Positions 25,960 to 39,235 of a stretch of 64,000 nucleotides of DNA are shown here, one piece after another. Position 1 is the first letter of the stretch; every line of letters starts with the position of its first letter. The translations under genes and the position numbers were made by a program. The stretch lies in contig DASTWO010000033.1 in assembly GCA_035776675.1 (NCBI GenBank), positions 431 to 64,430 on the forward strand. The letters are read 5' to 3'. This DNA is from Bacillales bacterium (GTDB taxonomy: Bacteria; Bacillota; Bacilli; Bacillales; DASSOY01). A model generated the notes under the pieces. The model saw only the letters and a program-made list of their open reading frames with translations. It had not been told where the DNA came from and did not search any database.

Positions 25960-25987
25960 CGATTTTTTTGAATAGAGGAGGTTGAAC

Positions 25988-26764
25988 GTGAATGAGCAAC
26001 TAACGGAGGTTTTCAAGGCGTTGGCCCATCCATACAGACAATCAATTCTGGATTTGTTGGCTGCAAGACCTATGACAACCGGTGAGGTAAGCGACCATTT
26101 TACAGAGGTTTCCCGATACGCTGTCATGAAACATTTGAATACACTTGTGGAAGCAAACCTTGTTGTGGCAAGGAAGAAGGGGCGTAAACGCTACAATTAT
26201 TTGAATGTCATGCCTTTGCAAATGATTAAGGAACGCTGGCTGAATGGTTATGATTCACTCATGGCTGAATCTCTATTGAATGTCAGAGAACTTTCCGAAA
26301 ACCCTGAGGAGGAGAAGATAATGGCTGAAAACTTGGAGAACCAATTGTTTGAAATCGAACAGGAAGTGCAAATTAAGGCCCCCAGACAAGACGTATTTCA
26401 TGCTTTGACCCATAAAATTAACGGATGGTGGTCGGAACGTTTGTTTAAGGATTCCGTAATGGAAGTGGAACCGCGGTTGGGCGGTAAGTTTATTGAGACA
26501 GGTGAAGACGGAAAGGCGGCATTGTGGGGAATGATTACCTACATTGTTCCGGATAGTGAAATTTGGTTGGATGGAAATTTGGGAATGCCGGGTCCGGTTA
26601 AAGGCCATTATCAGTATAAGCTAGAAGAACTGGACGAAGGTACAACCCAATTGAAATTATCCCATTCGGTAGTCGGGCCGCATGTCTCGGATTGGCGGAA
26701 GGACTACGAAAACGGCTGGAGAAGACTACTGGAAACAAAGTTGAAAGATTACCTTGAAAAATAA
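25988..26764 (+). CDS. ArsR/SmtB-family HTH regulator fused to an SRPBCC (AHSA1-like) ligand-binding domain
   Basis: FKALAHPYRQSILDLLAARPMTTGEVSDHF...VMKHLNTLVEANLV is an ArsR HTH. The C-terminal roughly 140 aa are SRPBCC-like. GTG start 7 nt after GAGGAGG (TTG 25982 is the alternative). Confidence 0.8.
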   Translation: MNEQLTEVFKALAHPYRQSILDLLAARPMTTGEVSDHFTEVSRYAVMKHLNTLVEANLVVARKKGRKRYNYLNVMPLQMIKERWLNGYDSLMAESLLNVRELSENPEEEKIMAENLENQLFEIEQEVQIKAPRQDVFHALTHKINGWWSERLFKDSVMEVEPRLGGKFIETGEDGKAALWGMITYIVPDSEIWLDGNLGMPGPVKGHYQYKLEELDEGTTQLKLSHSVVGPHVSDWRKDYENGWRRLLETKLKDYLEK

Positions 26765-26841: not shown

Positions 26842-26850
26842 TGGTATAAT
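26842..26850 (+). promoter_or_regulatory. Extended -10 element (TGGTATAAT) upstream of sigma factor 1
   Basis: TGnTATAAT match about 55 nt upstream of the proposed start at 26905. Confidence 0.45.
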
Positions 26851-26904: not shown

Positions 26905-27624
26905 TTGGCTGGTGTGTTTGACAAACAGGTTTCCGAAGAATGCGAGTTCACGGCCGCCATTCAATCCTATCATGCCGATCTGTCACGTTATTGCCGTATG
27001 ATGACAGGAACCCCTTGGGATGCGGACGACCTCTTACAGGAAACGTTAATCAAGGCCTTTAAATCCGGATCTGTCTTAGAGAACCATCCCGCACCGAAAG
27101 CCTTTTTGTTTCGTGTTGCTACGAATACATGGATTGACCATTGTCGAAGGAACAAAGTTCCGGAAGATACATATGAAGATGAACAATTTGCCAATGGCAA
27201 TGATAAGTATGAATTTGAGGTTCGTGAGGCGTTGGAGACTCTTATTTACCGGTTGCCTCCGCGACAGGTGGCCATTGTTTTGCTGATGGATGTATTCGGA
27301 TTTTCCGCTAAATCCGCGGCTGCCATGATGGAGGTTACGGAAGGGGCGGTTAAGGCAGCTCTGCACCGTGCCCGTTCAACGTTGAAAAAGGTGAAAATAG
27401 AGGAAAAAAGGGAACAAATCCTTTTGAAATCAAAGAGTGCGGCCGAACTAGTCGAAATATTCTTGGAAGCGTTCCAACAACATGATGCTGTTGCCGTGAG
27501 CCGAGCGTATCTTTCTCTTCAGGATCATGGGGTCGAGGTCAAAAGGGTCTCGAGCGGGAAAATCCTTTCTTTTCAATTTCAGGATCCCGATGGCAATGTT
27601 TTCACTGTTACTGCGAAGGCCTGA
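26905..27624 (+). CDS. ECF-type sigma-70 family sigma factor (sigma-1) with a short atypical C-terminal extension
   Basis: Region 2: DADDLLQETLIKAF...PKAFLFRVATNTWIDHCRR. Region 4: LPPRQVAIVLLMDVFGFSAKSAAAMMEVTEGAVKAALHRARSTL. TTG start after GGAGGAG (the track ORF starts at 26773). The C-terminus ends ...ILSFQFQDPDGNVFTVTAKA. Confidence 0.85.
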   Translation: MAGVFDKQVSEECEFTAAIQSYHADLSRYCRMMTGTPWDADDLLQETLIKAFKSGSVLENHPAPKAFLFRVATNTWIDHCRRNKVPEDTYEDEQFANGNDKYEFEVREALETLIYRLPPRQVAIVLLMDVFGFSAKSAAAMMEVTEGAVKAALHRARSTLKKVKIEEKREQILLKSKSAAELVEIFLEAFQQHDAVAVSRAYLSLQDHGVEVKRVSSGKILSFQFQDPDGNVFTVTAKA

Positions 27625-27640: not shown

Positions 27641-27669
27641 GCGTATCTTTTTTGATGCCAGTCTCGTTA
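27641..27669 (+). promoter_or_regulatory. ECF-type promoter P1 (GCGTATC-N17-CGTTA)
   Basis: GCGTATC 27641-27647, T-rich spacer, CGTTA 27665-27669. About 75 nt upstream of the VOC gene at 27745. The motif is shared with P2-P4. Confidence 0.55.
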
Positions 27670-27744
27670 ATAGAGTGAAGTTACCATAAGCAGCGGCAAC
27701 ATAGTGACCTCCTGTTGTCGCTGTGCCAAATGAGGAGGCAGAGA

Positions 27745-28509
27745 ATGAACTTTTTGCAGCTCAACAAGGTTTATTTACCGGTGAAAGACCTTGAGGACAC
27801 AGCAAAATGGTATCGGGATCAGTTTGGTTTAACAAAATCCTGGGAAGGCGAAGTGGACGGCCGTCAAGCAGCGGAACTTGCCTTTTCGGAGACTTCGTTC
27901 ACATTGATCGGCTCTGATCATGTCAATCGCTATTCTCACATTCCATTTAACTTCCATACGAATGAGATTGAAGCCGTCCGTGATTCATTAATGCGGAAGG
28001 GGAGTGTCGTAACGGATGTCATTGATGAAGGAGAAATGTATTGCTGTGACTTTTATGATCCTGAAGGAAACCGGATCGGGTTAGTTGAGGAAAAGAATGG
28101 GGCAACCGACCAGATGCAAGTGGGCGGAACCTTCTTGACCGTCCGAGACTTGGAAGATGCCATTAAATGGTACCGAAACAAGCTCGATTATGACTTTCAC
28201 TTTTTCAGTGTTACCGGAGGTGCTGGTTACATTGGCCAGACCCCGGAATATGTCCAGGAATTGACGATACGATATGCGCCTGTCAGCAGTGAATCATTTC
28301 AGACAAGATCAAGCCGGATGGCGATTGTGGAAACGCCTGAATTTTTCCCTCTCACCTACAAGGCGTATAGTATATTAAGTTCAAATATCGAGGAAGACTA
28401 TGAAACTTTGCGTTCCCGAGGAGTACATATCGTTCAGAAGTCCGATCAGAAGTTCACGTTTCAGGATGCAGACGGAAATGAAATAGAAATTGTGAAGGAA
28501 AAGCGCTAG
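27745..28509 (+). CDS. Two-domain VOC family protein (glyoxalase/bleomycin-resistance fold)
   Basis: RBS GAGGAGG. Domain starts VYLPVKDLEDTAKWYRDQFGL and TFLTVRDLEDAIKWYRNKLDY. Domain ends FYDPEGNRIGLV and FQDADGNEIEIV. Confidence 0.85.
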   Translation: MNFLQLNKVYLPVKDLEDTAKWYRDQFGLTKSWEGEVDGRQAAELAFSETSFTLIGSDHVNRYSHIPFNFHTNEIEAVRDSLMRKGSVVTDVIDEGEMYCCDFYDPEGNRIGLVEEKNGATDQMQVGGTFLTVRDLEDAIKWYRNKLDYDFHFFSVTGGAGYIGQTPEYVQELTIRYAPVSSESFQTRSSRMAIVETPEFFPLTYKAYSILSSNIEEDYETLRSRGVHIVQKSDQKFTFQDADGNEIEIVKEKR

Positions 28510-28705
28510 ATTATAAAAAAAGAGGGGATAACCATCAAACAGGGGGCACATTTCAATGTAAAGCGTCCAAATCCTGTTAGAAAAAAGTTGATGACAATGT
28601 TATGCCTCTTGGTGGTAATGACGGTTAAGAAAGGGAGCAGGTCACGATGAGTCATTTTTTTCAGAAAGGATGATAGATTTTTTCAAGCTATGGCATCTGT
28701 AGATT

Positions 28706-29470
28706 ATGGCACGAAAAAGAGGCGGCATTGTGGGGAAGGAATTGTTGGAAGTGAGAGGTTTCAAATCGGATGATGGCCGGGATAAAGGGCTTGTAGATAG
28801 AGCTCGGTCGGGAGACCGCGAAGCTTTCGGCGAATTGGTACGCCGGCACCGCGCCAAAGCTTACGGTTGGGCAAGTACTTTGGCTAATGACGCTCATTTG
28901 GCTGATGATATTGTTCAAGACGCTTTGATAGGGGCTTTTCTTCATGTTGGAGAGCTTATGGACAGTGACCGATTTGTGCCCTGGTTTCATAGAATTGTCC
29001 GTAACCAGGCATACATGAAGCTAAGGCGGGGCGGTCAATACGGAAAGGAAAGTCCGTTTTCAGCCCTCGAAGAACAAAATGGCAGCGAATCGAGCGATAT
29101 TGACCGAATTTTATTCCAACTTACTGTTTCGGTGGACGCCGATGAAAGTCTCGATCCGGCTGTTCGGCTGGTGAAGAAGGAAATGATCCGTGGCATTCAT
29201 GAGCTTCTCCATTGTTTAAGCCAACGGGAACGAAGCGTTTTTGAGGCCTTTTTCTTCCAGCAACTTTCACCCATTGAAATCGCACAATTATTTCAAACCC
29301 AAACCGGCAATGTTTACAATATCCTCTCACGTTCCAGGAGGAAAGTGCAACGGGAGCGGATTCGTGTCCATCTCAATGGTTTTGTCAGAAGGCGAAAAGA
29401 ACAGAAATTTCCCTCGAAGAAGACTTTGGCAAAACCGATCGAATTCTTTCAAGGAGAGGAAAGCAGATGA
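28706..29470 (+). CDS. Sigma-70 family (ECF-like) sigma factor (sigma-2)
   Basis: LVDRARSGDREAFGELVRRH, DDIVQDALIGAF, FVPWFHRIVRNQAYMKLRR (region 2). LSQRERSVFEAFFFQQLSPIEIAQLFQTQTGNVYNILSRSRRKV (region 4). The start codon is uncertain (alternatives GTG 28733, TTG 28745). Confidence 0.8.
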   Translation: MARKRGGIVGKELLEVRGFKSDDGRDKGLVDRARSGDREAFGELVRRHRAKAYGWASTLANDAHLADDIVQDALIGAFLHVGELMDSDRFVPWFHRIVRNQAYMKLRRGGQYGKESPFSALEEQNGSESSDIDRILFQLTVSVDADESLDPAVRLVKKEMIRGIHELLHCLSQRERSVFEAFFFQQLSPIEIAQLFQTQTGNVYNILSRSRRKVQRERIRVHLNGFVRRRKEQKFPSKKTLAKPIEFFQGEESR

Positions 29471-30432
29471 CCAAACAAGATGTCAGGCCGATGACGTGTA
29501 CTTCAGCAGCACAATCGATGTTTGCCGCAATACAGTATACCGACAAAAAGGATTTGTCGCTCGCCGAAGTAATGGGTTTCACCAGTCATGCATTCCGCAT
29601 TAACATTAACGCGGAAAATGTAGATGTAGCCGGGCCAACCGGGTATGAATGGAGAGATATCTTTCCGGAAGGACTTCGAAACCTGGGGTTTCAAACTGCA
29701 TATCGAGGAGCTCCTAATTTCACACCACCGACACCTAATGAGCTTTCCGAGGCAATTGAACTAGTTCAAAAAAGTATCGATAGAGGTGTTCCCGCGATTG
29801 CATGGGATTTGTTTATCCCCGAGTTTGGCCTGCTATACGGATATGACGATGATAAGCAAATCCTCATGGCGAAGGATTTCGAAAAAGAAGGAGAACTTGA
29901 CTACGAAAAATTAGGAAGAGGACAAATCGGAGAATTGTTTGTTCTTACGATTGAGGATTCGATCCCTATAGATAAAACCAGTTCATTAAAAGGCGCGCTG
30001 GAAATGATTCTGAACCATGCACACAAAAGGCAACATAAGCATGAAAAGCCACCCTATCAAAATGGGCTGGCCGGTTATGACGCATGGATTCAGGCATTTT
30101 CTAATCGAAGTGTCGACCCGTTCGGGAATGCTTACAACACATTAGTCGTTTCCGATGCCCGAAGGTATGCGGTTGATTTTTTAAGCGGGATTGTAGAAGA
30201 CGTTCAATATGAGGAAACTGTACGCCATTTAGCGTCTCGGTCTGCGGCTCATTACAAAAAGGGAAAAGATTCATTGGAAAAGCTTGCGGGTAAGTTTCCG
30301 TTTCCTGATGGAGGAAGCCCGAACGAGGGAGTGGAGGCTGAACTAGCGATCCAGCTGTTGTCCGAAGCCAAACAGGCCGAACAACAAGGCGTCGAGCTTC
30401 TGGAAGAAATGTATGATCGATTAAAAAATTGA
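29467..30432 (+). CDS. Cytoplasmic papain-like (BtrH-N/DUF4872-like, tentative) protein, translationally coupled to sigma-2
   Basis: ATGA overlap with the sigma-2 stop. No TM segment. Paralogous to 33014..34051, sharing MGFTSHAFRI/YGMTGIAFLI, RNLGF/ENLGI, SIDRGVPAIAWDL/AIDSGYPCFSFEL and LLYGYDDD/IVFGYNET. Confidence 0.6.
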   Translation: MTKQDVRPMTCTSAAQSMFAAIQYTDKKDLSLAEVMGFTSHAFRININAENVDVAGPTGYEWRDIFPEGLRNLGFQTAYRGAPNFTPPTPNELSEAIELVQKSIDRGVPAIAWDLFIPEFGLLYGYDDDKQILMAKDFEKEGELDYEKLGRGQIGELFVLTIEDSIPIDKTSSLKGALEMILNHAHKRQHKHEKPPYQNGLAGYDAWIQAFSNRSVDPFGNAYNTLVVSDARRYAVDFLSGIVEDVQYEETVRHLASRSAAHYKKGKDSLEKLAGKFPFPDGGSPNEGVEAELAIQLLSEAKQAEQQGVELLEEMYDRLKN

Positions 30433-30441
30433 AAGTATTGT

Positions 30442-30479
30442 ACTCAGGCTGTGGGTTGCTGCAGTCTGGGAGTTTTTTT
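30442..30479 (+). terminator. Probable rho-independent terminator
   Basis: Imperfect GC-rich stem (ACTCAGGCTG...CAGTCTGGGAGT) followed by TTTTTTT. Confidence 0.55.
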
Positions 30480-30485
30480 GTTCAG

Positions 30486-30512
30486 CCGTAACTTTTTTTC
30501 CTATTCTCGTTA
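30486..30512 (+). promoter_or_regulatory. ECF-type promoter P2 (CCGTAAC-N15-CGTTA)
   Basis: CCGTAAC 30486-30492, T7 tract, CGTTA 30508-30512. About 38 nt upstream of the GyrI-like gene. Confidence 0.5.
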
Positions 30513-30549
30513 GTAGGATGAGTATTCAATTCTCAAGGAGGCAATATCA

Positions 30550-31029
30550 ATGGAAGTGAAAATTGTTGAAAAAGAGGCATTTCAGCTGGTCGGCCTTGCC
30601 ATCAAGACAAAGGGGGACGGCGACCCTTCGACAAATGATATCTCTAAGCTGTGGGATCGGTTCGATGCAGCAAGCTCTCAAATTGAACACAGCATCAAGC
30701 CCGAAATCAAATTTGGCCTCATGACTTTTCCGGATCATTGGAAACACGGGGAGCCTTTTCAATACATGGCGGGTGTCGAAGTGAATCAATTTGAAAGTCT
30801 TCCTGAAGATATGGAAAGCGCAGAACTCCCTAAGCAGCAATATGCTGTGATTCATTACAGAGGGAAAATTTCGGGTATCGGCGTAGCCTATGATTACTTC
30901 TACCGAGAATGGCTCCCGAAGTCGGGATATGAGTTCGGGAACAACTTTGAGATGGAATACTATGATGGGAAATTCTATGGCCGCGACAACCCCGAATCAG
31001 AAATCTCCTTTTATTTTCCGGTAAAATAA
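30550..31029 (+). CDS. GyrI-like small-molecule-binding domain protein
   Basis: MEVKIVEKEAFQLVGLAIKT...FQYMAGVEV...YAVIHYRG...EFGNNFEMEYYD...ISFYFPVK is the typical GyrI-like/AraC-effector-binding (SbmC-like) pattern. Confidence 0.85.
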   Translation: MEVKIVEKEAFQLVGLAIKTKGDGDPSTNDISKLWDRFDAASSQIEHSIKPEIKFGLMTFPDHWKHGEPFQYMAGVEVNQFESLPEDMESAELPKQQYAVIHYRGKISGIGVAYDYFYREWLPKSGYEFGNNFEMEYYDGKFYGRDNPESEISFYFPVK

Positions 31030-31046
31030 AATTTTCTTAGCAGTCA

Positions 31047-31076
31047 GCGTATCTTTTTCCAAGAGTAATGTGTTTA
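31047..31076 (+). promoter_or_regulatory. ECF-type promoter P3 (GCGTATC-N17-TGTTTA) upstream of sigma-3
   Basis: GCGTATC 31047-31053, T-rich spacer, TGTTTA 31071-31076 (degenerate -10). Confidence 0.45.
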
Positions 31077-31111
31077 TCTAGTGAATGAAGCATTGCAGGA
31101 GGTTATGAAAA

Positions 31112-32053
31112 GTGACAAAAGAAGACTTATCCCAACTCAGCCATCCATTACGAGATCTGGAGAAAGAATTTCAGTTGCTGGTGGAGCCCCATCGCCCAGC
31201 GTTGTGGCGTTATTGTCGGATGATGACAGGTTCGCCATGGGAGGCGGAGGATCTTGTTCAAGAGACGCTGATGAAGACTTATGCCACACTTCCGAAACTG
31301 TGGCAACCAACCATTCCTAAAGCTTTCCTATTTCGAATCGCCACCAACACCTGGCTGAATCAATGTCGAAAGGCGAAGCGTCTGGTTGATGAACCTTGGG
31401 AGGAAGAAGATTCCATTGATAGGGACACGGACCCGTTCGAGGCAAGGGAAAATATCGAATTTCTTGTCAGGCATTTATCGCCGCGACAGACAGTCGTGTT
31501 TCTTTTAACAGAGGTATTTGATTTCAAAGCGCGTGAGGTGGCGGAAATGGCTGGAACAACAGAGGGCACGGTTAAGGCACTCTTGCACAGAGCTCGGAAA
31601 AAGTTAGAGGAGAAAACCGGAGAAACTTTCTTTCAGAACGAAGATACGCCGGCATTTAGCAAGGGGGAAACTGCTGTCGTTGAAGCCTATGTAGAAGCCT
31701 TTAACCGCCGAGATCCGGATGCAATTGCCAAATTAATGGATGATCGCGTAGTGTGCGATATCGTTCATATCGCAGAAGAATACGGAAAAGACGTCGTTCG
31801 TCAGAACTCACTGGAAGACTGGTCCAGAGATCCGATGCCTATGCAAACGGATGTAAAGGTATTGTGGAACAAGCCGGTATTTGCCGTAATGGGAGAGAAG
31901 AAGGGTCAGAAAGTGCTGTACGACCTGATCGAACTTGAAATTGAAGACGGCAAAATCGTCAAAAAGAAAGATTATTATTTCTGTCAAGATTTATTGACGG
32001 CAGCGGCAGAAGCATTAGATGTTCCCGCACATCTTAATGGGTACAGTTTCTAG
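31112..32053 (+). CDS. ECF-type sigma factor (sigma-3) with a C-terminal SnoaL/NTF2-like domain (SigJ/ECF41-like architecture)
   Basis: GTG start 9 nt after AGGAGG. Region 2: AEDLVQETLMKTY...PKAFLFRIATNTWLNQCRK. Region 4: LSPRQTVVFLLTEVFDFKAREVAEMAGTTEGTVKALLHRARKKL. This is followed by about 130 aa beginning AVVEAYVEAFNRRDPDAIAKLMDD (NTF2-like). Confidence 0.85.
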   Translation: MTKEDLSQLSHPLRDLEKEFQLLVEPHRPALWRYCRMMTGSPWEAEDLVQETLMKTYATLPKLWQPTIPKAFLFRIATNTWLNQCRKAKRLVDEPWEEEDSIDRDTDPFEARENIEFLVRHLSPRQTVVFLLTEVFDFKAREVAEMAGTTEGTVKALLHRARKKLEEKTGETFFQNEDTPAFSKGETAVVEAYVEAFNRRDPDAIAKLMDDRVVCDIVHIAEEYGKDVVRQNSLEDWSRDPMPMQTDVKVLWNKPVFAVMGEKKGQKVLYDLIELEIEDGKIVKKKDYYFCQDLLTAAAEALDVPAHLNGYSF

Positions 32054-32106
32054 TTATCGGTAAAAAACTTTGGCCACCAAAAAAATAAAAACTTTTTCTA
32101 AATCGA

Positions 32107-32135
32107 CCGTATCTTTTCGGTCGGTTTCTTCGTAA
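32107..32135 (+). promoter_or_regulatory. ECF-type promoter P4 (CCGTATC-N17-CGTAA) in front of the 12-gene VOC operon
   Basis: CCGTATC 32107-32113, CGTAA 32131-32135. 19 nt upstream of the ATG at 32154. Confidence 0.55.
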
Positions 32136-32153
32136 GTAGTGTGGAAGGTGAAA

Positions 32154-32564
32154 ATGACTGAGTTGAAAGGAGTTGGCGCATTGAAATTCATAAAGCGAGT
32201 GGACAGTATTTTCATTCCTGTCAAGGACATTAAGGAATCGGAAGAATGGTACAAAAAAGTTTTTGATTTAACAGTGGTTTATCGAAGTGAAGACAACATC
32301 GGTTTTCGATTTAACGAACCGTGGCCGTTGAAAACCGGGTTATCCCTTTACAAAAGTGAGGAAGCCGGAAAGCCTTCCCCTGTCCATTTTAATTTTTACA
32401 CAGAAGATGTAGATGGATTTTATCAATACCTTTCCGATGAGGGAGTCGAGCCTGATGAGGTTCAAAGTGAAGACGGGATGCGCTTTTTCGATTTCCATGA
32501 CCCGAGCGGAAACCGGTTCAACGTTGTGACCTTTAAGGAAATTGCGCTGGAACATATTGATTAA
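32154..32564 (+). CDS. Single-domain VOC family protein
   Basis: RBS GGAAGGTGA. IFIPVKDIKESEEWYKKVFDL ... FFDFHDPSGNRFNVV. Confidence 0.85.
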   Translation: MTELKGVGALKFIKRVDSIFIPVKDIKESEEWYKKVFDLTVVYRSEDNIGFRFNEPWPLKTGLSLYKSEEAGKPSPVHFNFYTEDVDGFYQYLSDEGVEPDEVQSEDGMRFFDFHDPSGNRFNVVTFKEIALEHID

Positions 32565-32599
32565 TCCCGAATGGGGTGCGAAATATTGGAGGGGTTAAA

Positions 32600-33004
32600 T
32601 TGAAATTGCGTGTCGGAGGAATTTTCATTCCGGTTACCGATTTGGAACGGTCAATTGAGTGGTATATGGAGTGCTTGAACCTAAAGCTCGTTGATCGCTG
32701 GCCGGAAGGTGCCGGTGCTGGCTTTACATTTGAAAATGGGGAAGCCGGCCTGGGGCTAGTCAAGGTGGAGACGAAGCAACCAACGGAGTTCAGAGTTTCC
32801 TCGCGTTATCAGAACTGCTATTACAACTTCGAACCTGAAAATGTCCAGGAAATGCATCAATTTCTGAAAGGTAGAGGTGTGAAAGTGACTGAGATTGAAG
32901 ATCACGGTCCCATGGAAGGGTTTGATTTTTTCGATCCTGATGGGAATCCCTTCAGTGCAGTTCGGGATAAACCACAATCACCTTATTATCATCCGTTTCA
33001 GTAA
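32600..33004 (+). CDS. Single-domain VOC family protein
   Basis: TTG start 5 nt after GGAGGGG (the track ORF starts at GTG 32576). IFIPVTDLERSIEWYMECLNL ... FDFFDPDGNPFSAV. Confidence 0.85.
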   Translation: MKLRVGGIFIPVTDLERSIEWYMECLNLKLVDRWPEGAGAGFTFENGEAGLGLVKVETKQPTEFRVSSRYQNCYYNFEPENVQEMHQFLKGRGVKVTEIEDHGPMEGFDFFDPDGNPFSAVRDKPQSPYYHPFQ

Positions 33005-33013
33005 AGGGGAGAG

Positions 33014-34051
33014 ATGATGGCAGGCAAAACATTGGATGAACTGAAATTTTCTTATTGTGACCATACGCTCATCGGCAGTTTGAAGGCCAGCCTCGATTTT
33101 CTGGGGATCGACGTGTCCGAGGATTGGTTATACGGAATGACCGGGATTGCTTTTCTCATCGTCACTGATGAAAAGGTGTCTACAGATGCTGTAGCGTATG
33201 GCTATGAGCCAGGTATGGTATTTCGCCTCGCCGAAAATCTGGGGATCCGAGTCAAGGGCATCCACCGTGTTGAAGATCCTCATGATCGTGAAGGGTTAAT
33301 CCAATCAGCCTGGTCGCAAGCACGCCGCGCCATAGATAGCGGATATCCGTGTTTCAGCTTTGAATTGGAGGAACAGCACGAGCATGCCATTGTTTTCGGC
33401 TATAATGAAACCGGTTACCTAACGCATGGTTGGCATCAAAGGGGAACTCGCTCCATTCCTTGGGAACTGCTGGGTCAAAGCATGTGCCCTTGTGAAAGGT
33501 GTGAAGACCAACGGAATAAAAGTAATGTCGTACCCACAAAAAGTTTCATTGATCTTCATTGGGTTGAACCCGGACCGAAGGAAGACCCGGCGAGGGCTTT
33601 TGAACAAATGCTTTCTTTTGTATTAGCCGTTTCCTTTGAACGTCTTTGGGTCTACAGAGGTTTTGATGGAGGTTCGTCAGCTTACGATCATTTGATTCAA
33701 GCCGTTGAGGAAGGCACCGCGATAGGAAAACACATTGGTTATAACTTGAGTGCATGGAGTGAGGCGCGGAGCCATGCACCGGGATTTCTTGAACAAGTCC
33801 ATGAACATTTGGAAGGCAATGCTGATGGTTCATTGGACCGGGCAACCGCAGCTTACCGAGACGTTGCAGAATTATTAGAAGAAGCGTCAGAACTGTATCC
33901 GTGGAGACAGCCGATGGAACCTGTCGGTGTGAATGAAACAAGCCGTAAGGCGGCAGCCCTTTTGAAAAGAGAGAAAGATGCCGAAATCAATGTTTTAGAT
34001 GCATTGAAGGAACTTCACAACACTTTAAATAGAAAGGAATCTGCCAAATGA
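33014..34051 (+). CDS. Papain-like (BtrH-N/DUF4872-like, tentative) protein, paralog of 29467..30432
   Basis: Shares motifs with 29467..30432 (listed there). Candidate nucleophile Cys in SYCDHTLIGSL. No TM segment. Stop overlaps the next gene. Confidence 0.6.
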   Translation: MMAGKTLDELKFSYCDHTLIGSLKASLDFLGIDVSEDWLYGMTGIAFLIVTDEKVSTDAVAYGYEPGMVFRLAENLGIRVKGIHRVEDPHDREGLIQSAWSQARRAIDSGYPCFSFELEEQHEHAIVFGYNETGYLTHGWHQRGTRSIPWELLGQSMCPCERCEDQRNKSNVVPTKSFIDLHWVEPGPKEDPARAFEQMLSFVLAVSFERLWVYRGFDGGSSAYDHLIQAVEEGTAIGKHIGYNLSAWSEARSHAPGFLEQVHEHLEGNADGSLDRATAAYRDVAELLEEASELYPWRQPMEPVGVNETSRKAAALLKREKDAEINVLDALKELHNTLNRKESAK

Positions 34052-34842
34052 CAAAAGCCAATCAAACAAGTTCAGTACAACCGCGTGTGAGTTGCGCCTT
34101 TATTCACGTCAGTGATTTGAAGAATTCAGTGGTATTTTACAGCATGATCTTTGGGCTGCCGGTATTGAAAGAGCGTCTTAATGGAGGCCCCGTCTATGGA
34201 GTCGATATTGAAGGTGGAACAGGTTTGCTTTTGGATGACAACAGTGTGAACAAGCAACATCCTGATTGGGATGAGAGTCAGCAAAATTTATGTATGGTGG
34301 AAACCAAGGATATTGAGGCGGCGTATGAACACGTCAAAAACCTGGAGGCGGAAATTGTGTCCGAACCCGAGAATCCCCATCCCGGATTGGCTTTCTTTCG
34401 TTTTCGTGACCCGGACGGCAATGTTCTTATGGTCACGCAAAGTGATTATGAAGGAGAACCCCTTGCCCGGGAGGAAAAGACCCCGATCCACAACCGGATT
34501 AAAGCCATTTTTATTAATGTCACCGATATGGAGAGAGCCGTCAAGTGGTACGAAGGGTTATTCAGTGTGTCCATGGCCCAAAATCATAATGCTCCCGTGC
34601 TTAATATTCCAACAGAAGGCGGGTCAGACCTTTTATTGGATGCCAACCGCTTTTTGCAGGGCGATGATTACAAAACATTGCTGATGTTAGACACAGACGA
34701 TGTCGATGAAGCTTATCGATTTTTGAAAAGCCGCGATGTCGAGATTTTCAAGGAAATTGAAAGATACGACGATGTTTCATTTTTCACCTTCAAAGATCCG
34801 GACGGCAATGTCCTGATGGTTTGCCAGGAACACAAGAAATAA
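34048..34842 (+). CDS. Two-domain VOC family protein
   Basis: AFIHVSDLKNSVVFYSMIFGL...FRFRDPDGNVLMV and IFINVTDMERAVKWYEGLFSV...FTFKDPDGNVLMV. Confidence 0.85.
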   Translation: MTKANQTSSVQPRVSCAFIHVSDLKNSVVFYSMIFGLPVLKERLNGGPVYGVDIEGGTGLLLDDNSVNKQHPDWDESQQNLCMVETKDIEAAYEHVKNLEAEIVSEPENPHPGLAFFRFRDPDGNVLMVTQSDYEGEPLAREEKTPIHNRIKAIFINVTDMERAVKWYEGLFSVSMAQNHNAPVLNIPTEGGSDLLLDANRFLQGDDYKTLLMLDTDDVDEAYRFLKSRDVEIFKEIERYDDVSFFTFKDPDGNVLMVCQEHKK

Positions 34843-34862
34843 ATAGATGAAGGGAGGAAGGC

Positions 34863-35216
34863 ATGGAGATGATTCGAAAGGGTGTTAACGGCATTTTGGT
34901 TTACTGCCGTGACCTGCATAAGTCTGCAAGATGGTATTCCCAACTGGGGTTTACGATAGGGGAACATGACTTTGATCACTTCGTTGATTTGGAAGTAGAC
35001 GGGAATTATGTATTGCATCTGGTGAAAAAGGAGGACTTTACATCGCTGGCACCCCCTGCTTTCACTTTCGATACACCGGACATTGAGGCGACTTTTGAAA
35101 GGTTGAAAGAAAACGGAGTGGACATCATCGGAGAGTTGAACCGACACTCGAACCATTCGGAGTTCAGCTTCAGAGACCTTGACGGGAATACATTGATGTT
35201 TACAAAGTGGGATTGA
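34863..35216 (+). CDS. Single-domain VOC family protein
   Basis: ILVYCRDLHKSARWYSQLGFT ... FSFRDLDGNTLMF. RBS GGGAGGAAGG. Confidence 0.8.
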   Translation: MEMIRKGVNGILVYCRDLHKSARWYSQLGFTIGEHDFDHFVDLEVDGNYVLHLVKKEDFTSLAPPAFTFDTPDIEATFERLKENGVDIIGELNRHSNHSEFSFRDLDGNTLMFTKWD

Positions 35217-35254
35217 ATCGGTTCTAAGGTGCCGAGAAAAAGGGGGATGGCAGG

Positions 35255-36001
35255 ATGATTCAGTATATCGACGCCGTTTTTTTGCCTGTATTCAATTTGG
35301 AAGAATCATTGAAATGGTATAAGAAACACTTTGGGATCAAAGTGAATTGGCGGGATACAAACGGATGGAACGCCGCCGGGGTAGGATTTAATTCCGGTGC
35401 TATGGTGATGATGGAGCGTGAGACTATCAACCACAGTGATCATATTCGTTTTAACTTTTATACGCCAGATGTGATAACCTGCTATCAATCATTAGAAGAG
35501 AATGACGTTGAGCTTAATCAATTGGTTCAATATGAAGACATGGATTGTTTCGATTTCAAGGATCCGAGCGGGAACTGGATTGGGATTGTAGGCCGTTGGA
35601 CAGAAAAGGGAATAAGTCCGGGAGAGTTCGTTGGCCCCGATGCTATTTTCTTGCCTGTGAGTAACATCGAGCTGGCCATAGAATGGTATCAAGCACTTCT
35701 GGGGGGCGAATTTGATTTGGCAACAGATCTTCATTCGCAATATCCGTTCCGGTATGGTTTCCACAAGAACGGGGAAGACCGGGACCATCCGCGGTGGTTT
35801 AATTTAGTGGAAACCCCAAATCGTTACCCTCAATCACATATACCTTTTAACATTCAAATCCAGGATGCTTCGAAAGTCCACCGTGATTTACAGGGAAAGG
35901 GTATTTCAGTTACAGATATCACGGATACTGGAGCCTTCCGTTGGTTTAACTTTGTTGATCCGGATGGTAATGAAATCGGATTTGTTGAAGGCGGAAGATA
36001 G
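35255..36001 (+). CDS. Two-domain VOC family protein
   Basis: VFLPVFNLEESLKWYKKHFGI...FDFKDPSGNWIGIV and IFLPVSNIELAIEWYQALLGG...FNFVDPDGNEIGFV. Confidence 0.85.
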   Translation: MIQYIDAVFLPVFNLEESLKWYKKHFGIKVNWRDTNGWNAAGVGFNSGAMVMMERETINHSDHIRFNFYTPDVITCYQSLEENDVELNQLVQYEDMDCFDFKDPSGNWIGIVGRWTEKGISPGEFVGPDAIFLPVSNIELAIEWYQALLGGEFDLATDLHSQYPFRYGFHKNGEDRDHPRWFNLVETPNRYPQSHIPFNIQIQDASKVHRDLQGKGISVTDITDTGAFRWFNFVDPDGNEIGFVEGGR

Positions 36002-36037
36002 GTTTGAACTAGACCTTAATAAATTGGAGGGACCATT

Positions 36038-36433
36038 GTGTCGATAAAGAAACCGTATGAGATTTCCTATATTCAAATCCCCGTTAAGGATCCAAAGAAA
36101 TCAGCTGATTTTTATGAAGGAGTACTCGGGATGACCTATTCGTTTCCTTATAATCCGGCGGATCGGGCGGCTTTTATGGAATTCCAAGGGAACATCGCCC
36201 TGGGGCTCATTCAATCTGAGACCATTCCAGACCTGACCTTTCGTGATACTTTGGGCAATGTCAATGCCGTTATTCAGTTCACCGTTCGTGATATTCAAGA
36301 TTTCTACAATTCGTTAAAGGAACAAAATGTGCCGGTCGGTCCAATGATCTTCAAAGAAGACGGCGGATATAATTTTACAGTTCAAGATCCTGACGGACAT
36401 GTATCCCATGTATGGGGTGGTTGGCCGGAATAG
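36038..36433 (+). CDS. Single-domain VOC family protein
   Basis: GTG start after GGAGGGA. IQIPVKDPKKSADFYEGVLGM ... FTVQDPDGHVSHV. Confidence 0.85.
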   Translation: MSIKKPYEISYIQIPVKDPKKSADFYEGVLGMTYSFPYNPADRAAFMEFQGNIALGLIQSETIPDLTFRDTLGNVNAVIQFTVRDIQDFYNSLKEQNVPVGPMIFKEDGGYNFTVQDPDGHVSHVWGGWPE

Positions 36434-36463
36434 TAAAATCTTTTGAAAGGATGTTGAGGAACT

Positions 36464-36949
36464 GTGTGTGAGTTAATTAAAAGACCAGAAACGAAAGTTG
36501 CCGGGTTACGGGTACAATGCGATACTCTGGAAGAATTCTCGATCGAGATTCCGAAGGTATTTGACAAGCTGGACGAGTGTCTTGATGGAATTCCGAATAT
36601 TGTTGACTCCAGCGGCAGGATTGGAATCCATTTGGCAGAAGATGAAAACAACGCGAATGCAGAGGCGGCGGATTACGGTTATCTGGTTTGTGTTGAAGTG
36701 AGCAGCTTCGAAGATATCCCAACAGATTTTGAAACAGACACCATTCCAGCCGGCAAATTTGCGGTAAATAGCCATCAAGGTCCGGTCAATCCCAACATTC
36801 ATCATTCCTATGCCGCTCTTTATAATTGGATGTCGGAACATGGACACGAAGAGCTGCCGGTTGGGCACGTTCTTGAACATTATGATGAGCGCTATGATCG
36901 TAAGAACTTCAGCGGCGAAATGGAAATTCTCATTCCAGTAAAATCATAA
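36464..36949 (+). CDS. GyrI-like small-molecule-binding domain protein
   Basis: ETKVAGLRVQC...YGYLVCVEVSSFEDIP...KFAVNSHQG...HVLEHYDERYD...MEILIPVK. Confidence 0.8.
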   Translation: MCELIKRPETKVAGLRVQCDTLEEFSIEIPKVFDKLDECLDGIPNIVDSSGRIGIHLAEDENNANAEAADYGYLVCVEVSSFEDIPTDFETDTIPAGKFAVNSHQGPVNPNIHHSYAALYNWMSEHGHEELPVGHVLEHYDERYDRKNFSGEMEILIPVKS

Positions 36950-37015
36950 GGTTTTCCTTTGAAGATGAGAAAGTAAACCGAAGGGTACAACCTTTAAAAT
37001 AAGGGAGACAACATA

Positions 37016-37513
37016 ATGAAAATGAGACTTGAACCAGTGGAAAGGTTTAAGGTTGTCGGAATTCGAATCATCGATGAGATGGAAAACCTCAATGCTCGAA
37101 TCCAACAGGCAGCCAGAGAGCTGCAAGAGCGGATGCATGAAATTCGCGGAGTGAGAAATCCGGATGTCCTGTACGGAATATCACCGCCAAACTATAAAGG
37201 CAATCCGGGACCTCTCGATTTTTATGTCTGTGTGGAAGTGGATCCTTTCGAGAACTTGCCTTATGGAATGGTCAACATCACGATAGACCCGGAACTGTAT
37301 GCCGTTTGTACATATGAGAAAGATTCAATGAATAACAAAGGGAATGCGTATGATTTCACGACTACGTGGCTACAGGAAAAAGGATATGAGTACTTCGATG
37401 CTGCCTATTATTTTGAGGTTTACAATGTCAACGGCGAATGGACTAATTTAGAAGATTTGGATAATACCCATAATCGAATCAAAGTTTATTCACCGGTTAG
37501 AAAAGGCGGGTAA
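37016..37513 (+). CDS. GyrI-like small-molecule-binding domain protein
   Basis: FKVVGIRI...DFYVCVEVDPFENLP...YAVCTYE...YYFEVYN...IKVYSPVR. RBS AAGGGAGA. Confidence 0.8.
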   Translation: MKMRLEPVERFKVVGIRIIDEMENLNARIQQAARELQERMHEIRGVRNPDVLYGISPPNYKGNPGPLDFYVCVEVDPFENLPYGMVNITIDPELYAVCTYEKDSMNNKGNAYDFTTTWLQEKGYEYFDAAYYFEVYNVNGEWTNLEDLDNTHNRIKVYSPVRKGG

Positions 37514-37516
37514 TCC

Positions 37517-38296
37517 ATGAATTCTTTATTTGAAAAGATCGGAACAGTGTGTGTTCCGGTAAAAGATGTTCAAAAATCAGCGGATTGGTATACAGAGAAA
37601 CTGGGAATGCGGGTTTGTCGGAAAGATGAAGCTCAAGCGGAACTCGAGGTTTGCGGAGGAGAAACCGTCTTGATCCTTAAGGCAGCTGAACCATTTAACC
37701 CCGTTAATTACTTGCATCGTAAGGGAATGGTCACGCATTTTAATTTCAATACGTTGGATGCCGAACTCGCTCATTTGATGCTCAAAGACAAAGAAGTTGG
37801 GGTGACTGATGTCCTCGATGCAGATTTTCTCAAATGTTTCGCTTTTCGGGACCTGGACGGAAATGTTCTCAGTGTTTGTTATGAAAAAGAGCATTCTATG
37901 TTCTATCAGCCTATCACGGAAACTAGCATTTCTTTATTCGAACGGATTGAAGCGGTTTTTATCCTCGTTCGGGATTTGCGAAATACCCTAGACTGGTATC
38001 TTCATCTGCCCGGGCTGGAATTGTTAAATGACTGGAAGCAAGGAGCGGACTTGAAAGTGGGGAACGGAGAAACGATTGTGACTCTCATTCAAGTAGATGA
38101 TTTCACCCCGCGGCAAAACAGTTATTTTGAATTTACCACCGCCAATATGAAGAAGACGCATTCTTATTTAAAAAAGATGGGGGCGAGCGTTTCTGAAATT
38201 GATTCGACTCCTCAAGAAACTTCCTGTCGGGTTCAGGACCCTGAAGGCAATATTTTCGGTGTGAGGCGTAGAAAAGTAGCGGCCCCAACCCTATAA
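37517..38296 (+). CDS. Two-domain VOC family protein
   Basis: VCVPVKDVQKSADWYTEKLGM...FAFRDLDGNVLSV and VFILVRDLRNTLDWYLHLPGL...CRVQDPEGNIFGV. Confidence 0.85.
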   Translation: MNSLFEKIGTVCVPVKDVQKSADWYTEKLGMRVCRKDEAQAELEVCGGETVLILKAAEPFNPVNYLHRKGMVTHFNFNTLDAELAHLMLKDKEVGVTDVLDADFLKCFAFRDLDGNVLSVCYEKEHSMFYQPITETSISLFERIEAVFILVRDLRNTLDWYLHLPGLELLNDWKQGADLKVGNGETIVTLIQVDDFTPRQNSYFEFTTANMKKTHSYLKKMGASVSEIDSTPQETSCRVQDPEGNIFGVRRRKVAAPTL

Positions 38297-38346
38297 TGAG
38301 AGATCTTCAAAAAATCACTTAATATAGATTTGAAAGGAGAATGAAG

Positions 38347-38811
38347 ATGAAGGAAGAACAATTATTTGAGCAAATGAAAATGTGGCGTGGTTGGACAGTA
38401 GAGCTTCTTAAAACCGTTCCCCATGGGATTGTTGATGAAATCCCGAATGGATTTCGGAACAATATTCGGTGGAACGCAGGCCATATCCTGGCAGGGTGGG
38501 ACCATACGATGTTCCCTGCAGTGGGAATGGAAAGGCAACTGCCGTTATCCTATCACCTTATGTTTCCGAGAGGCAGTAAACCTGCCGATTGGACTGAAGA
38601 ACCGCCATCGATGGATGAATTGATTCAGCGACTTGAAGAGCAGCCGCAACAGATTGAAGAAGCGTGTAAAGGGCACTTGGAGGATCCGCTCGAAGAGCCG
38701 TTTCTGCATATGACCACCCTGGGAGAAATGTTTGTTTTTCACATGGCCCATGAGAACCTGCACGTCGGTACGATAAACAGTATGAAAAAAACCCTTGAAA
38801 CAGGTGAATAA
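38347..38811 (+). CDS. DinB-superfamily (DinB_2-like) protein
   Basis: WRGWTVELLKTVP...RWNAGHILAGWDH...FVFHMAHENLHVGTI shows the His-triad pattern of DinB-like helical bundles. Start taken at the second ATG, after AGGAGA. Confidence 0.75.
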   Translation: MKEEQLFEQMKMWRGWTVELLKTVPHGIVDEIPNGFRNNIRWNAGHILAGWDHTMFPAVGMERQLPLSYHLMFPRGSKPADWTEEPPSMDELIQRLEEQPQQIEEACKGHLEDPLEEPFLHMTTLGEMFVFHMAHENLHVGTINSMKKTLETGE

Positions 38812-38815
38812 TTTC

Positions 38816-39235
38816 ATGTCAAAACCGCAAATCTCGAAAATCGCCACCGTGGAAATTCCGGTTTCGGATTTGGACCGGTCCGTGAAATGGTACACTGAGA
38901 AATTGAATCTCCATCTTGATTTCAAAGGTGACCAAAACGCGATGTTACTCTTTAATAAGAAAGGCACACCCTCAATTTTTCTTGTAGAAACTCATGAAGA
39001 AAGCAGGCTTTCCTTTCTCAATTCAAACACCGGCGTTACACATAGTGTCATTGACTTCTATACAGAGGATTTGAAAGGGTTCTATGAATATCTGAAGGGA
39101 CAAGATGTAGAGGTAGGGTCTTATAATGCGGATCCGGATGATCCAAACGGATTTGGCGGATTTGGTTTTAAAGATCCTGACGGCAATTGGCTCAGTGCCT
39201 GTAATGTAGATCATGACAAGTCGATTCCTGAGTAA
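38816..39235 (+). CDS. Single-domain VOC family protein
   Basis: VEIPVSDLDRSVKWYTEKLNL ... FGFKDPDGNWLSA. Start at the internal ATG, 4 nt after the preceding stop. Confidence 0.85.
   Translation: MSKPQISKIATVEIPVSDLDRSVKWYTEKLNLHLDFKGDQNAMLLFNKKGTPSIFLVETHEESRLSFLNSNTGVTHSVIDFYTEDLKGFYEYLKGQDVEVGSYNADPDDPNGFGGFGFKDPDGNWLSACNVDHDKSIPE

Follow-up and report, generated by a model that had tools for sequence, protein, structure and literature searches.

We describe here sigma-1, an extracytoplasmic function (ECF) sigma factor encoded by an open reading frame at 26905..27624 on the + strand of a 64,000-nucleotide stretch of DNA (hereafter the window) from a Bacillales bacterium (assembly GCA_035776675.1, contig DASTWO010000033.1). 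Sigma-1 has 239 residues and ends in a 62-residue C-terminal extension (the tail), part of which is a homologue of the end of a vicinal oxygen chelate (VOC) domain, that is, of its C-terminal helix and its three strands with the DPDGN hairpin. The tail is under constraint similar to that on the sigma domains. Our best explanation, in which we have moderate confidence as a whole, is that Bacillales have a small and conserved family of ECF sigma factors, as yet uncharacterised, whose members, sigma-1 among them, carry a mosaic mini-domain of the form helix-helix-strand-strand-strand. Sigma-1 is not a broken gene, and to annotate it as one would be unwarranted.

Composition of the C-terminal tail

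The mini-domain comprises residues 178-239 (27436..27621, +), as delimited by AlphaFold2 and by conservation in 53 homologues. In a Pfam search, the last ~45 residues of sigma-1 give a weak match to positions 72-119 of the 121 in the Glyoxalase profile (PF00903), with an E-value of 0.085 (0.024 for the tail alone) and a score of 13.7-15.4 bits that lies under the gathering threshold of 20.6. When the last 46 residues were compared pairwise with the nine VOC genes of the window, seven gave z-scores of 8-10, and 0 of 300 shuffles scored as high. PF00903 is matched by 24 of 32 tails of the family when these are scanned singly, and none of the 32 matches a SnoaL model of Pfam. A profile built from the 32 tails matches the C-terminal ends of VOC proteins of known structure, with 3ey7 the best (E = 4.9e-5) and STM3117, FosA and the mitomycin-binding protein following. 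Local alignment of this profile to the 13 VOC domains of the window with hhalign (98.5%, E = 2.6e-15) pairs tail columns 16-60 with VOC columns 80-125, and its score of 77.5 compares with a maximum of 15.7 among 60 column shuffles. Together with the Foldseek matches described below, these results place the VOC-derived segment at residues 193-237 (27481..27615, +). It corresponds to the last helix and the three strands of a beta-alpha-beta-beta-beta module, the FxFxDPDGN turn included. A complete VOC domain consists of two such modules. The sigma-1 tail contains less than one, its first strand being missing, and it is not a complete VOC domain either by pairing of modules or by score.

The beginning of the tail resembles a different fold. 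Helix 1 aligns pairwise with the SnoaL-type extension of sigma-3, another ECF sigma factor of the window, with a z-score of 4.2, and the tail profile aligns with the extension of the sigma-3 family over columns 2-25 (hhalign 93.6%, E = 2.2e-7; score 39.8, shuffle maximum 19.6). This SnoaL/NTF2-derived segment, residues 179-202 (AAELVEIFLEAFQQHDAVAVSRAY; 27439..27510, +), is the counterpart of alpha1 and the first part of alpha2 in the sigma-3-type extension, and the full-length profile alignment runs through it. The SnoaL-like and VOC-like matches overlap by 10 residues at the start of helix 2 (columns 16-25, HDAVAVSRAY), presumably the junction of the two pieces.

An earlier reading of this DNA, made from the sequence alone, had described sigma-1 as a chimera with a sigma-3-like core, a SnoaL helix and a VOC-type end, and had proposed pairwise alignment and structure prediction as checks. 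The reading frame and all the strings it quoted are present in the sequence, and the anatomy it described agrees with both the pairwise scores and the two shuffle-controlled profile alignments.

Some hidden Markov model (HMM) alignments to VOC proteins reach back to tail position 8. We also considered that the whole tail might be one complete VOC module, helix 1 being in reality a strand, and rejected this: AlphaFold2 predicts a helix with a predicted local distance difference test score (pLDDT) above 90, and the segment matches SnoaL alpha1 at the profile level.

A glutamate in the last strand serves as a metal ligand in VOC metalloenzymes. By eye, the strand after DPDGN lacks this residue in the sigma-1 tail and in most VOC modules of the surrounding gene island (27745-39235), where G, N, S, M, T or H is found instead. 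In the island modules, its absence would fit binding or sequestering proteins rather than enzymes.

Predicted structure of the tail

AlphaFold2, run with the 53-sequence alignment, predicts helices at residues 179-191 and 195-207, followed by strands at residues 211-217, 220-226 and 232-238. The mean pLDDT is 89.8 for full-length sigma-1 and 91.2 for a model of the tail alone, which has a predicted template modelling score (pTM) of 0.74; the fold of the tail is predicted with confidence. A Foldseek search with the full-length model returned sigma factors only, the best matches being ECF sigma factors. With the tail-only model, VOC proteins came first (2r6u, FosA 5wew/1lqk and FosX), superimposing over ~44 columns at 2.7-4 Å, and there were no NTF2 proteins among the matches. 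The mosaic composition of the tail is confirmed at the sequence and profile level, and more weakly at the level of the fold.

Conservation and distribution of the tail family

A search of 5.8 billion proteins yielded >50 clusters of sigma factors, 225-270 amino acids in length, that cover 90-97% of sigma-1 at 35-74% identity. Their hosts are Bacillales metagenome-assembled genomes, Cohnella, Paenibacillus and Bacillus carboniphilus. All of these clusters have the same tail, with the consensus LxExFLxAFxxxDPxAIxxAYxxLxxxGxxxxRxxxxGxxLYFxFxDPDGN, and so does the closest orthologue (locus L011, 74% identity). Asp227 and Pro228, the D-P of DPDGN, are invariant in the family; Phe186, Phe190, Tyr202, Gly209, Phe223 and Gly230 are nearly so. 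Measured from the first helix, the tail is 61-85 residues long in the 53 aligned members, mostly 61-72. Its mean column identity of 0.38-0.39 compares with 0.44 in sigma2, 0.52 in sigma4 and 0.12 in the linker. The sequence-only reading had left open whether sigma-1 had lost its regulatory domain or gained a new one; such conservation fits a gain and does not fit a loss.

The complete tail is almost confined to sigma factors. A phmmer search of 1.84 billion representative proteins with the 62 residues found the full tail almost only at the C-terminus of sigma factors of 235-267 amino acids, the shorter matches being fragments of sigma factors. In a sample of 401 genomes from the class, the source genome and six genomes of one genus have the complete tail, and there are two divergent full-length matches within the order to which these belong. 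Matches restricted to HMM positions 16-61 are given by ordinary VOC proteins of 120-150 amino acids in ~50 of the 401 genomes.

Neighbouring VOC genes, candidate promoters and proposed regulation

We examined 12 loci of the tail family: the window, L011, L012, L014, L015, L016 and the six genomes of one genus. A VOC gene adjoins the sigma gene in all 12, lying downstream in 11 and upstream in Paenibacillus sacheonensis (L012). In the six loci for which genes have been called, no anti-sigma gene flanks the sigma gene, and no clp gene lies near it in the window, L011, L012, L014, L015 or L016. The VOC proteins encoded next door are diverse: they share 21-43% identity, consist of one domain or two, and are not alike even in the window and at the locus of the 74%-identical orthologue. 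Their diversity argues for targets of the sigma factor rather than a fixed binding partner. In the window, the adjacent gene, the presumed target, encodes a two-domain VOC protein of 254 amino acids, starting at ATG 27745 (27745..28509, +) and matching Pfam Glyoxalase in two stretches.

From shared 8-mers we derived an ECF-type promoter candidate, CCGT(A/T)TC-N15-17-(T)CGTT(A/T), located between the sigma stop codon and the VOC start codon. Its form in the window is GCGTATC-N16-TCGTTA at 27641, within a candidate element GCGTATC-N16-TCGTTAAT (27641..27671, +) whose motif is common to other sites of the island and to the tail-family loci. In 11 loci the motif directly precedes the VOC gene that adjoins the sigma gene; its position is the same in L011, L014-L016 and L018/L020-L023, and in L012 it lies 5' of the VOC-sigma operon. 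Within the window, the pattern CGTA(T/A)C-N14-16-(T)CGT(T/A)A recurs at 27641-27671, 30487-30512, 31047-31075 and 32107-32135, preceding the VOC gene at 27745, a GyrI-like gene at 30550, the sigma-3 gene and the VOC gene at 32139, respectively. The strict promoter pattern is unique in the 3.1-Mb assembly. The loose pattern occurs there at chance level (16 matches, three of them in the island, vs 18 in the control), and no wider regulon was evident from this genome-wide scan. The promoter motif suggests that tail-type sigma factors regulate the neighbouring VOC gene.

No ECF-type motif is present upstream of sigma-1 itself. Instead, there is a candidate extended -10 element of the kind used by the housekeeping sigma factor (TGGTATAAT; 26842..26850, +), which we infer, by reading of the sequence, to belong to the promoter of sigma-1. 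Elements resembling TGnTAnAAT also precede the orthologues in L011, L014 and L015. An extended -10 element without an ECF motif suggests that sigma-1 is transcribed by the housekeeping sigma factor and controlled post-translationally. In the P. sacheonensis locus (L012, 5565-6753), the VOC gene overlaps the downstream tail-type sigma gene by 11 nucleotides; unlike that of the window, this module looks autoregulated.

C-terminal extensions commonly replace anti-sigma factors 
(PMC7826278), as is the case in the ECF41 and ECF56 groups (PMC7826278, PMC8999054). ECF56 sigma factors control genes of the glyoxalase family, and truncation of their extension leads to higher activity (bioRxiv 10.1101/2020.01.30.927608). 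We propose that sigma-1 would work in a comparable way. The sigma gene would be transcribed from its housekeeping-type promoter and its product would have no anti-sigma partner gene; the tail would serve as a cis-regulatory or sensing module, like the extensions of ECF41 and ECF56, and the sigma factor would drive the adjacent VOC gene from the CCGTWTC-N15-17-CGTT promoter. A cis-acting regulatory element is thus the most likely role of the tail.

Origin of the tail

The homologues of sigma-1 fall into three classes: those with the VOC-like tail (T), those with a long SnoaL-type extension, including sigma-3 (L), and those with an extension of ~75-105 amino acids (U). The extension of sigma-3 is a complete NTF2-like domain, as the sequence-only reading had held: its profile matches the polyketide cyclase 3i0y (E = 1e-8) and ketosteroid isomerases over positions 179-297. 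The best relative of the sigma-3 profile in the PDB is SigG1 (7qh5). In a tree built by a quick search from the sigma core alone (71 rows, 156 columns), a branch with an SH-aLRT support of 90 has classes T and U together on one side, within a grade of class L. Forcing T into a single clade gave a better likelihood than the free search (approximately unbiased test, p = 0.73). A single origin of the tail family would fit this tree; monophyly is not rejected.

An L-type sigma gene is followed by a VOC gene in three of four loci, namely the window (sigma-3, followed by the gene at 32139), L011 and L029, with gaps of 12-90 bp, the shortest being that in L029; the exception, L030, has a DinB gene in place of the VOC gene. 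Because SnoaL-type relatives typically have a VOC gene directly downstream, a fusion of sigma and VOC genes makes sense as the origin of the tail. The simplest history would be as follows. The ancestors would have been ECF56-like sigma factors with a full SnoaL/NTF2 extension, like sigma-3, whose genes lay immediately 5' of a VOC gene. One ancient deletion, in frame, would have begun in SnoaL helix 2 and ended in the last helix encoded by that VOC gene. SnoaL helix 1 would have been kept, and what followed it in the NTF2 cone would have given way to the helix and three strands that end a VOC half-module. The fusion product would then have been fixed and kept under purifying selection. The join is probably the result of a deletion that linked a sigma gene to the target gene downstream of it.

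Class U appears to be the sister lineage of the tail family and seems to fit the published description of ECF115. All but two of its thirteen members end in AA, the other two in VA, and the U extensions keep a weak trace of the same first helices. The source genome contains a member of its own on another contig (C206; L003, 1432-2277), a third paralogous ECF sigma factor of 281 amino acids with 44% core identity to sigma-1. Its extension of ~105 amino acids ends in REFSIAA, and clpP (2295-2897) starts 17 bp downstream. A Virgibacillus member also has clpP directly downstream. The class looks like sigma factors controlled by a built-in, ssrA-like degron.

Alternative explanations

Several points weigh against the mosaic, its ancient origin and its regulatory role as set out above. 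The similarity of helix 1 to SnoaL extends over 24 columns. The structural matches between tail and VOC proteins are weak (E = 0.07-0.1), because the query is so short (62 residues). The full-length model of sigma-1 has a pTM of 0.49 and gives no support for docking of the tail on sigma2 or sigma4. The organisms behind the 12 loci are related, so that these do not count as independent observations, and the motif shared by the four sites of the window could be assigned to sigma-1 or to sigma-3. Long outgroup branches and the quick search make the rooting of the tree tentative, and the ancient deletion cannot be reconstructed at the DNA level.

In domain-swapped VOC dimers, FosA and glyoxalase I among them, beta-alpha-beta-beta-beta modules pair across the two subunits. 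The VOC half-module of the tail could similarly pair with a module of a free VOC protein, or with a second tail; the sigma factor would then be sequestered or set free by VOC proteins or through dimerisation that depends on a ligand. We regard this as unlikely, although it survives better than the other alternatives. The tail is homologous to exactly that part of a VOC domain which needs a partner module, the edge of its sheet should be open as the first strand of the module is missing, a VOC gene is always adjacent, and domain-swapped FosA and FosX are among the best structural matches. What weakens the idea is that the adjacent VOC proteins, diverse as they are in sequence and domain number, offer no conserved partner; moreover, the adjacency is explained equally well if the VOC gene is simply the target. 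In a more specific form, to which we give somewhat less credence still, the tail would be a free VOC half-module that is completed either by the induced VOC proteins or by a second tail in a ligand-dependent manner. If true, the abundance of VOC proteins, or the extent to which they are occupied, would directly tune the transcription of a toxin-binding VOC gene. Such a partner switch, made out of a piece of the same fold as its target and smaller than a domain, would follow a regulatory logic that has not been described for ECF sigma factors.

The tail could also be an inert cap, that is, a stably folded remnant that does not signal, with sigma-1 being controlled through transcription or turnover only and the fold conserved merely because it protects sigma4 from misfolding or degradation. 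The domain is tiny, its last strand has Thr, Ser or Met where VOC metalloenzymes have glutamate, and the sister class U is apparently controlled by proteolysis, judging from its AA C-termini and the clpP gene next door. We nevertheless consider this reading doubtful, and a shade more so than completion of a half-module: across ~35% identity, the tail is conserved almost as well as the domains that bind DNA and RNA polymerase; the housekeeping-type promoter and the lack of an anti-sigma gene leave the tail as the only visible control element; and the extensions of related groups are regulatory (PMC7826278, PMC8999054).

Finally, a recent deletion or recombination in this genome, which would have put the 3' end of a nearby VOC gene onto the sigma gene and left a damaged or deregulated sigma factor, was suggested by the mosaic anatomy and by the abundance of VOC paralogues nearby, but is very improbable and was rejected: the tail is present in orthologues and distant homologues and has a confidently predicted fold, its DNA has no similarity to local VOC genes beyond ~30 nucleotides (blastn against the rest of the window gave only 26-36-nucleotide matches, at the DPDGN codons), and it is no nearer to the adjacent VOC gene than to other VOC paralogues in pairwise comparison. 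The shared helix 1 and the tree argue against independent recent fusions in the homologues. The fusion envisaged by the sequence-only reading is sensible as a proposed ancient origin of the tail, and falls as a recent and local event, given the occurrence of the tail in >50 clusters and in the L011 orthologue. That reading had named an ancestral C-terminus in orthologues as grounds for abandoning the idea; the orthologues dispose of recency in this way and leave the chimeric origin untouched.

The sigma-1 gene and its surroundings

Sigma-1 is an ECF (group 4) sigma-70 factor with only sigma2 and sigma4 as its core. Pfam identifies region 2 (Sigma70_r2, PF04542, E = 7.5e-15) at residues ~19-84 (26959..27156, +) and region 4 (Sigma70_r4_2, PF08281, E = 5.5e-13) at residues ~107-160 (27223..27384, +). 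The score of 68.1 bits for TIGR02937 (sigma70-ECF) lies above the cut-off of 42.9 for the ECF superfamily. The likely start codon is TTG at 26905, seven bases behind the ribosome-binding site GGAGGAG (26893); the gene call in the database starts three codons later.

The gene belongs to an island at ~26-39 kb of the window, in which three ECF sigma genes, nine VOC genes (13 domains), GyrI-like genes and a DinB-like gene are all encoded on a single strand. Directly 5' of sigma-1 (25982-26764) is a gene for an ArsR-type helix-turn-helix fused to an AHSA1/SRPBCC ligand-binding domain, which may be a second small-molecule-responsive regulator of the island. Two further genes encode soluble proteins without a Pfam match. 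One of them (29467-30432, 321 amino acids) is translationally coupled to sigma-2 through an ATGA overlap, and the other (33014-34051, 345 amino acids) sits within a VOC operon.

Comparison with known systems

ECF sigma factors with fused C-terminal domains are one-component sensors. To our knowledge, few types of extension have been described for them: SnoaL/NTF2, tetratricopeptide repeat (TPR), Cys-rich and transmembrane. The tail family adds a very small type, seemingly joined from pieces of two unrelated folds below the domain level, and would illustrate cleanly how a natural chimera of sub-domain pieces can fold and be retained by selection. No sigma factor with a glyoxalase- or VOC-type extension was found in a literature search that covered the main text of the ECF reclassification; the tail family may already sit unnoticed inside a published ECF group. 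The two-gene module of sigma factor, promoter and VOC gene is simple and directly testable for orthogonal regulation, and the family could help to reveal the signal that controls the large detoxification island of VOC and GyrI-like genes in the source genome.

With the VOC superfamily (PF00903), sigma-1 shares its last ~45 residues, including the FxFxDPDGN hairpin. It differs in lacking the first strand of the module and the metal- or ligand-binding glutamate of the last strand.

With ECF41 (SigJ, PDB 5xe7; Ecf41Bli), sigma-1 shares the principle of a fused C-terminal domain that takes the place of an anti-sigma factor and, in ECF41, contacts the core. However, sigma-1 has neither the DGGGK motif after sigma4 nor a full SnoaL_2 domain, and its core match is much weaker (NF007214, 54 bits vs a cut-off of 271).

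ECF115 has been described as having a C-terminal extension of ~70 amino acids, predicted Clp-dependent proteolysis and a clp neighbourhood, with an example from Bacillus sp. FJAT-18019 (PMC8999054), and a preprint on ECF reclassification groups it with the SnoaL-extension groups (10.1101/2019.12.11.873521). The tail family likewise comes from Firmicutes and has a short extension (~60-100 amino acids) and a core that neighbours the SnoaL-extension groups; its tails, mostly 61-72 residues long, agree with the ~70 of ECF115. Compared by this published description rather than by group HMMs, it differs from ECF115 in ending in a folded VOC-like sheet, not an AA-type tag, and in having a VOC gene beside the sigma gene, not clp.

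The closest core is that of ECF56/TIGR02960, the group of Mycobacterium tuberculosis SigG, Streptomyces venezuelae SVEN_4562 and S. tsukubaensis SigG1 (PDB 7qh5), and the best NCBIfam matches of sigma-1 are NF006089 and TIGR02960. Sigma-1 nevertheless scores far under the cut-offs of both models (119.3 vs 240 and 99.8 vs 264.75, respectively), and its host belongs to the Bacillales, not the Actinobacteria. Its extension has 62 residues instead of 120-150, with the NTF2 cone replaced by a VOC helix and three strands, and its candidate promoter motif is CCGTWTC-N15-17-CGTT, whereas CGATGAGTT-N14-GGTC has been reported for ECF56. The likenesses are that SigG1 is among the best structural and sequence matches in our analysis, that the first helix of the extension is shared, that no anti-sigma gene is adjacent, and that glyoxalase/VOC genes occur in the neighbourhood or regulon in both cases (bioRxiv 10.1101/2020.01.30.927608).

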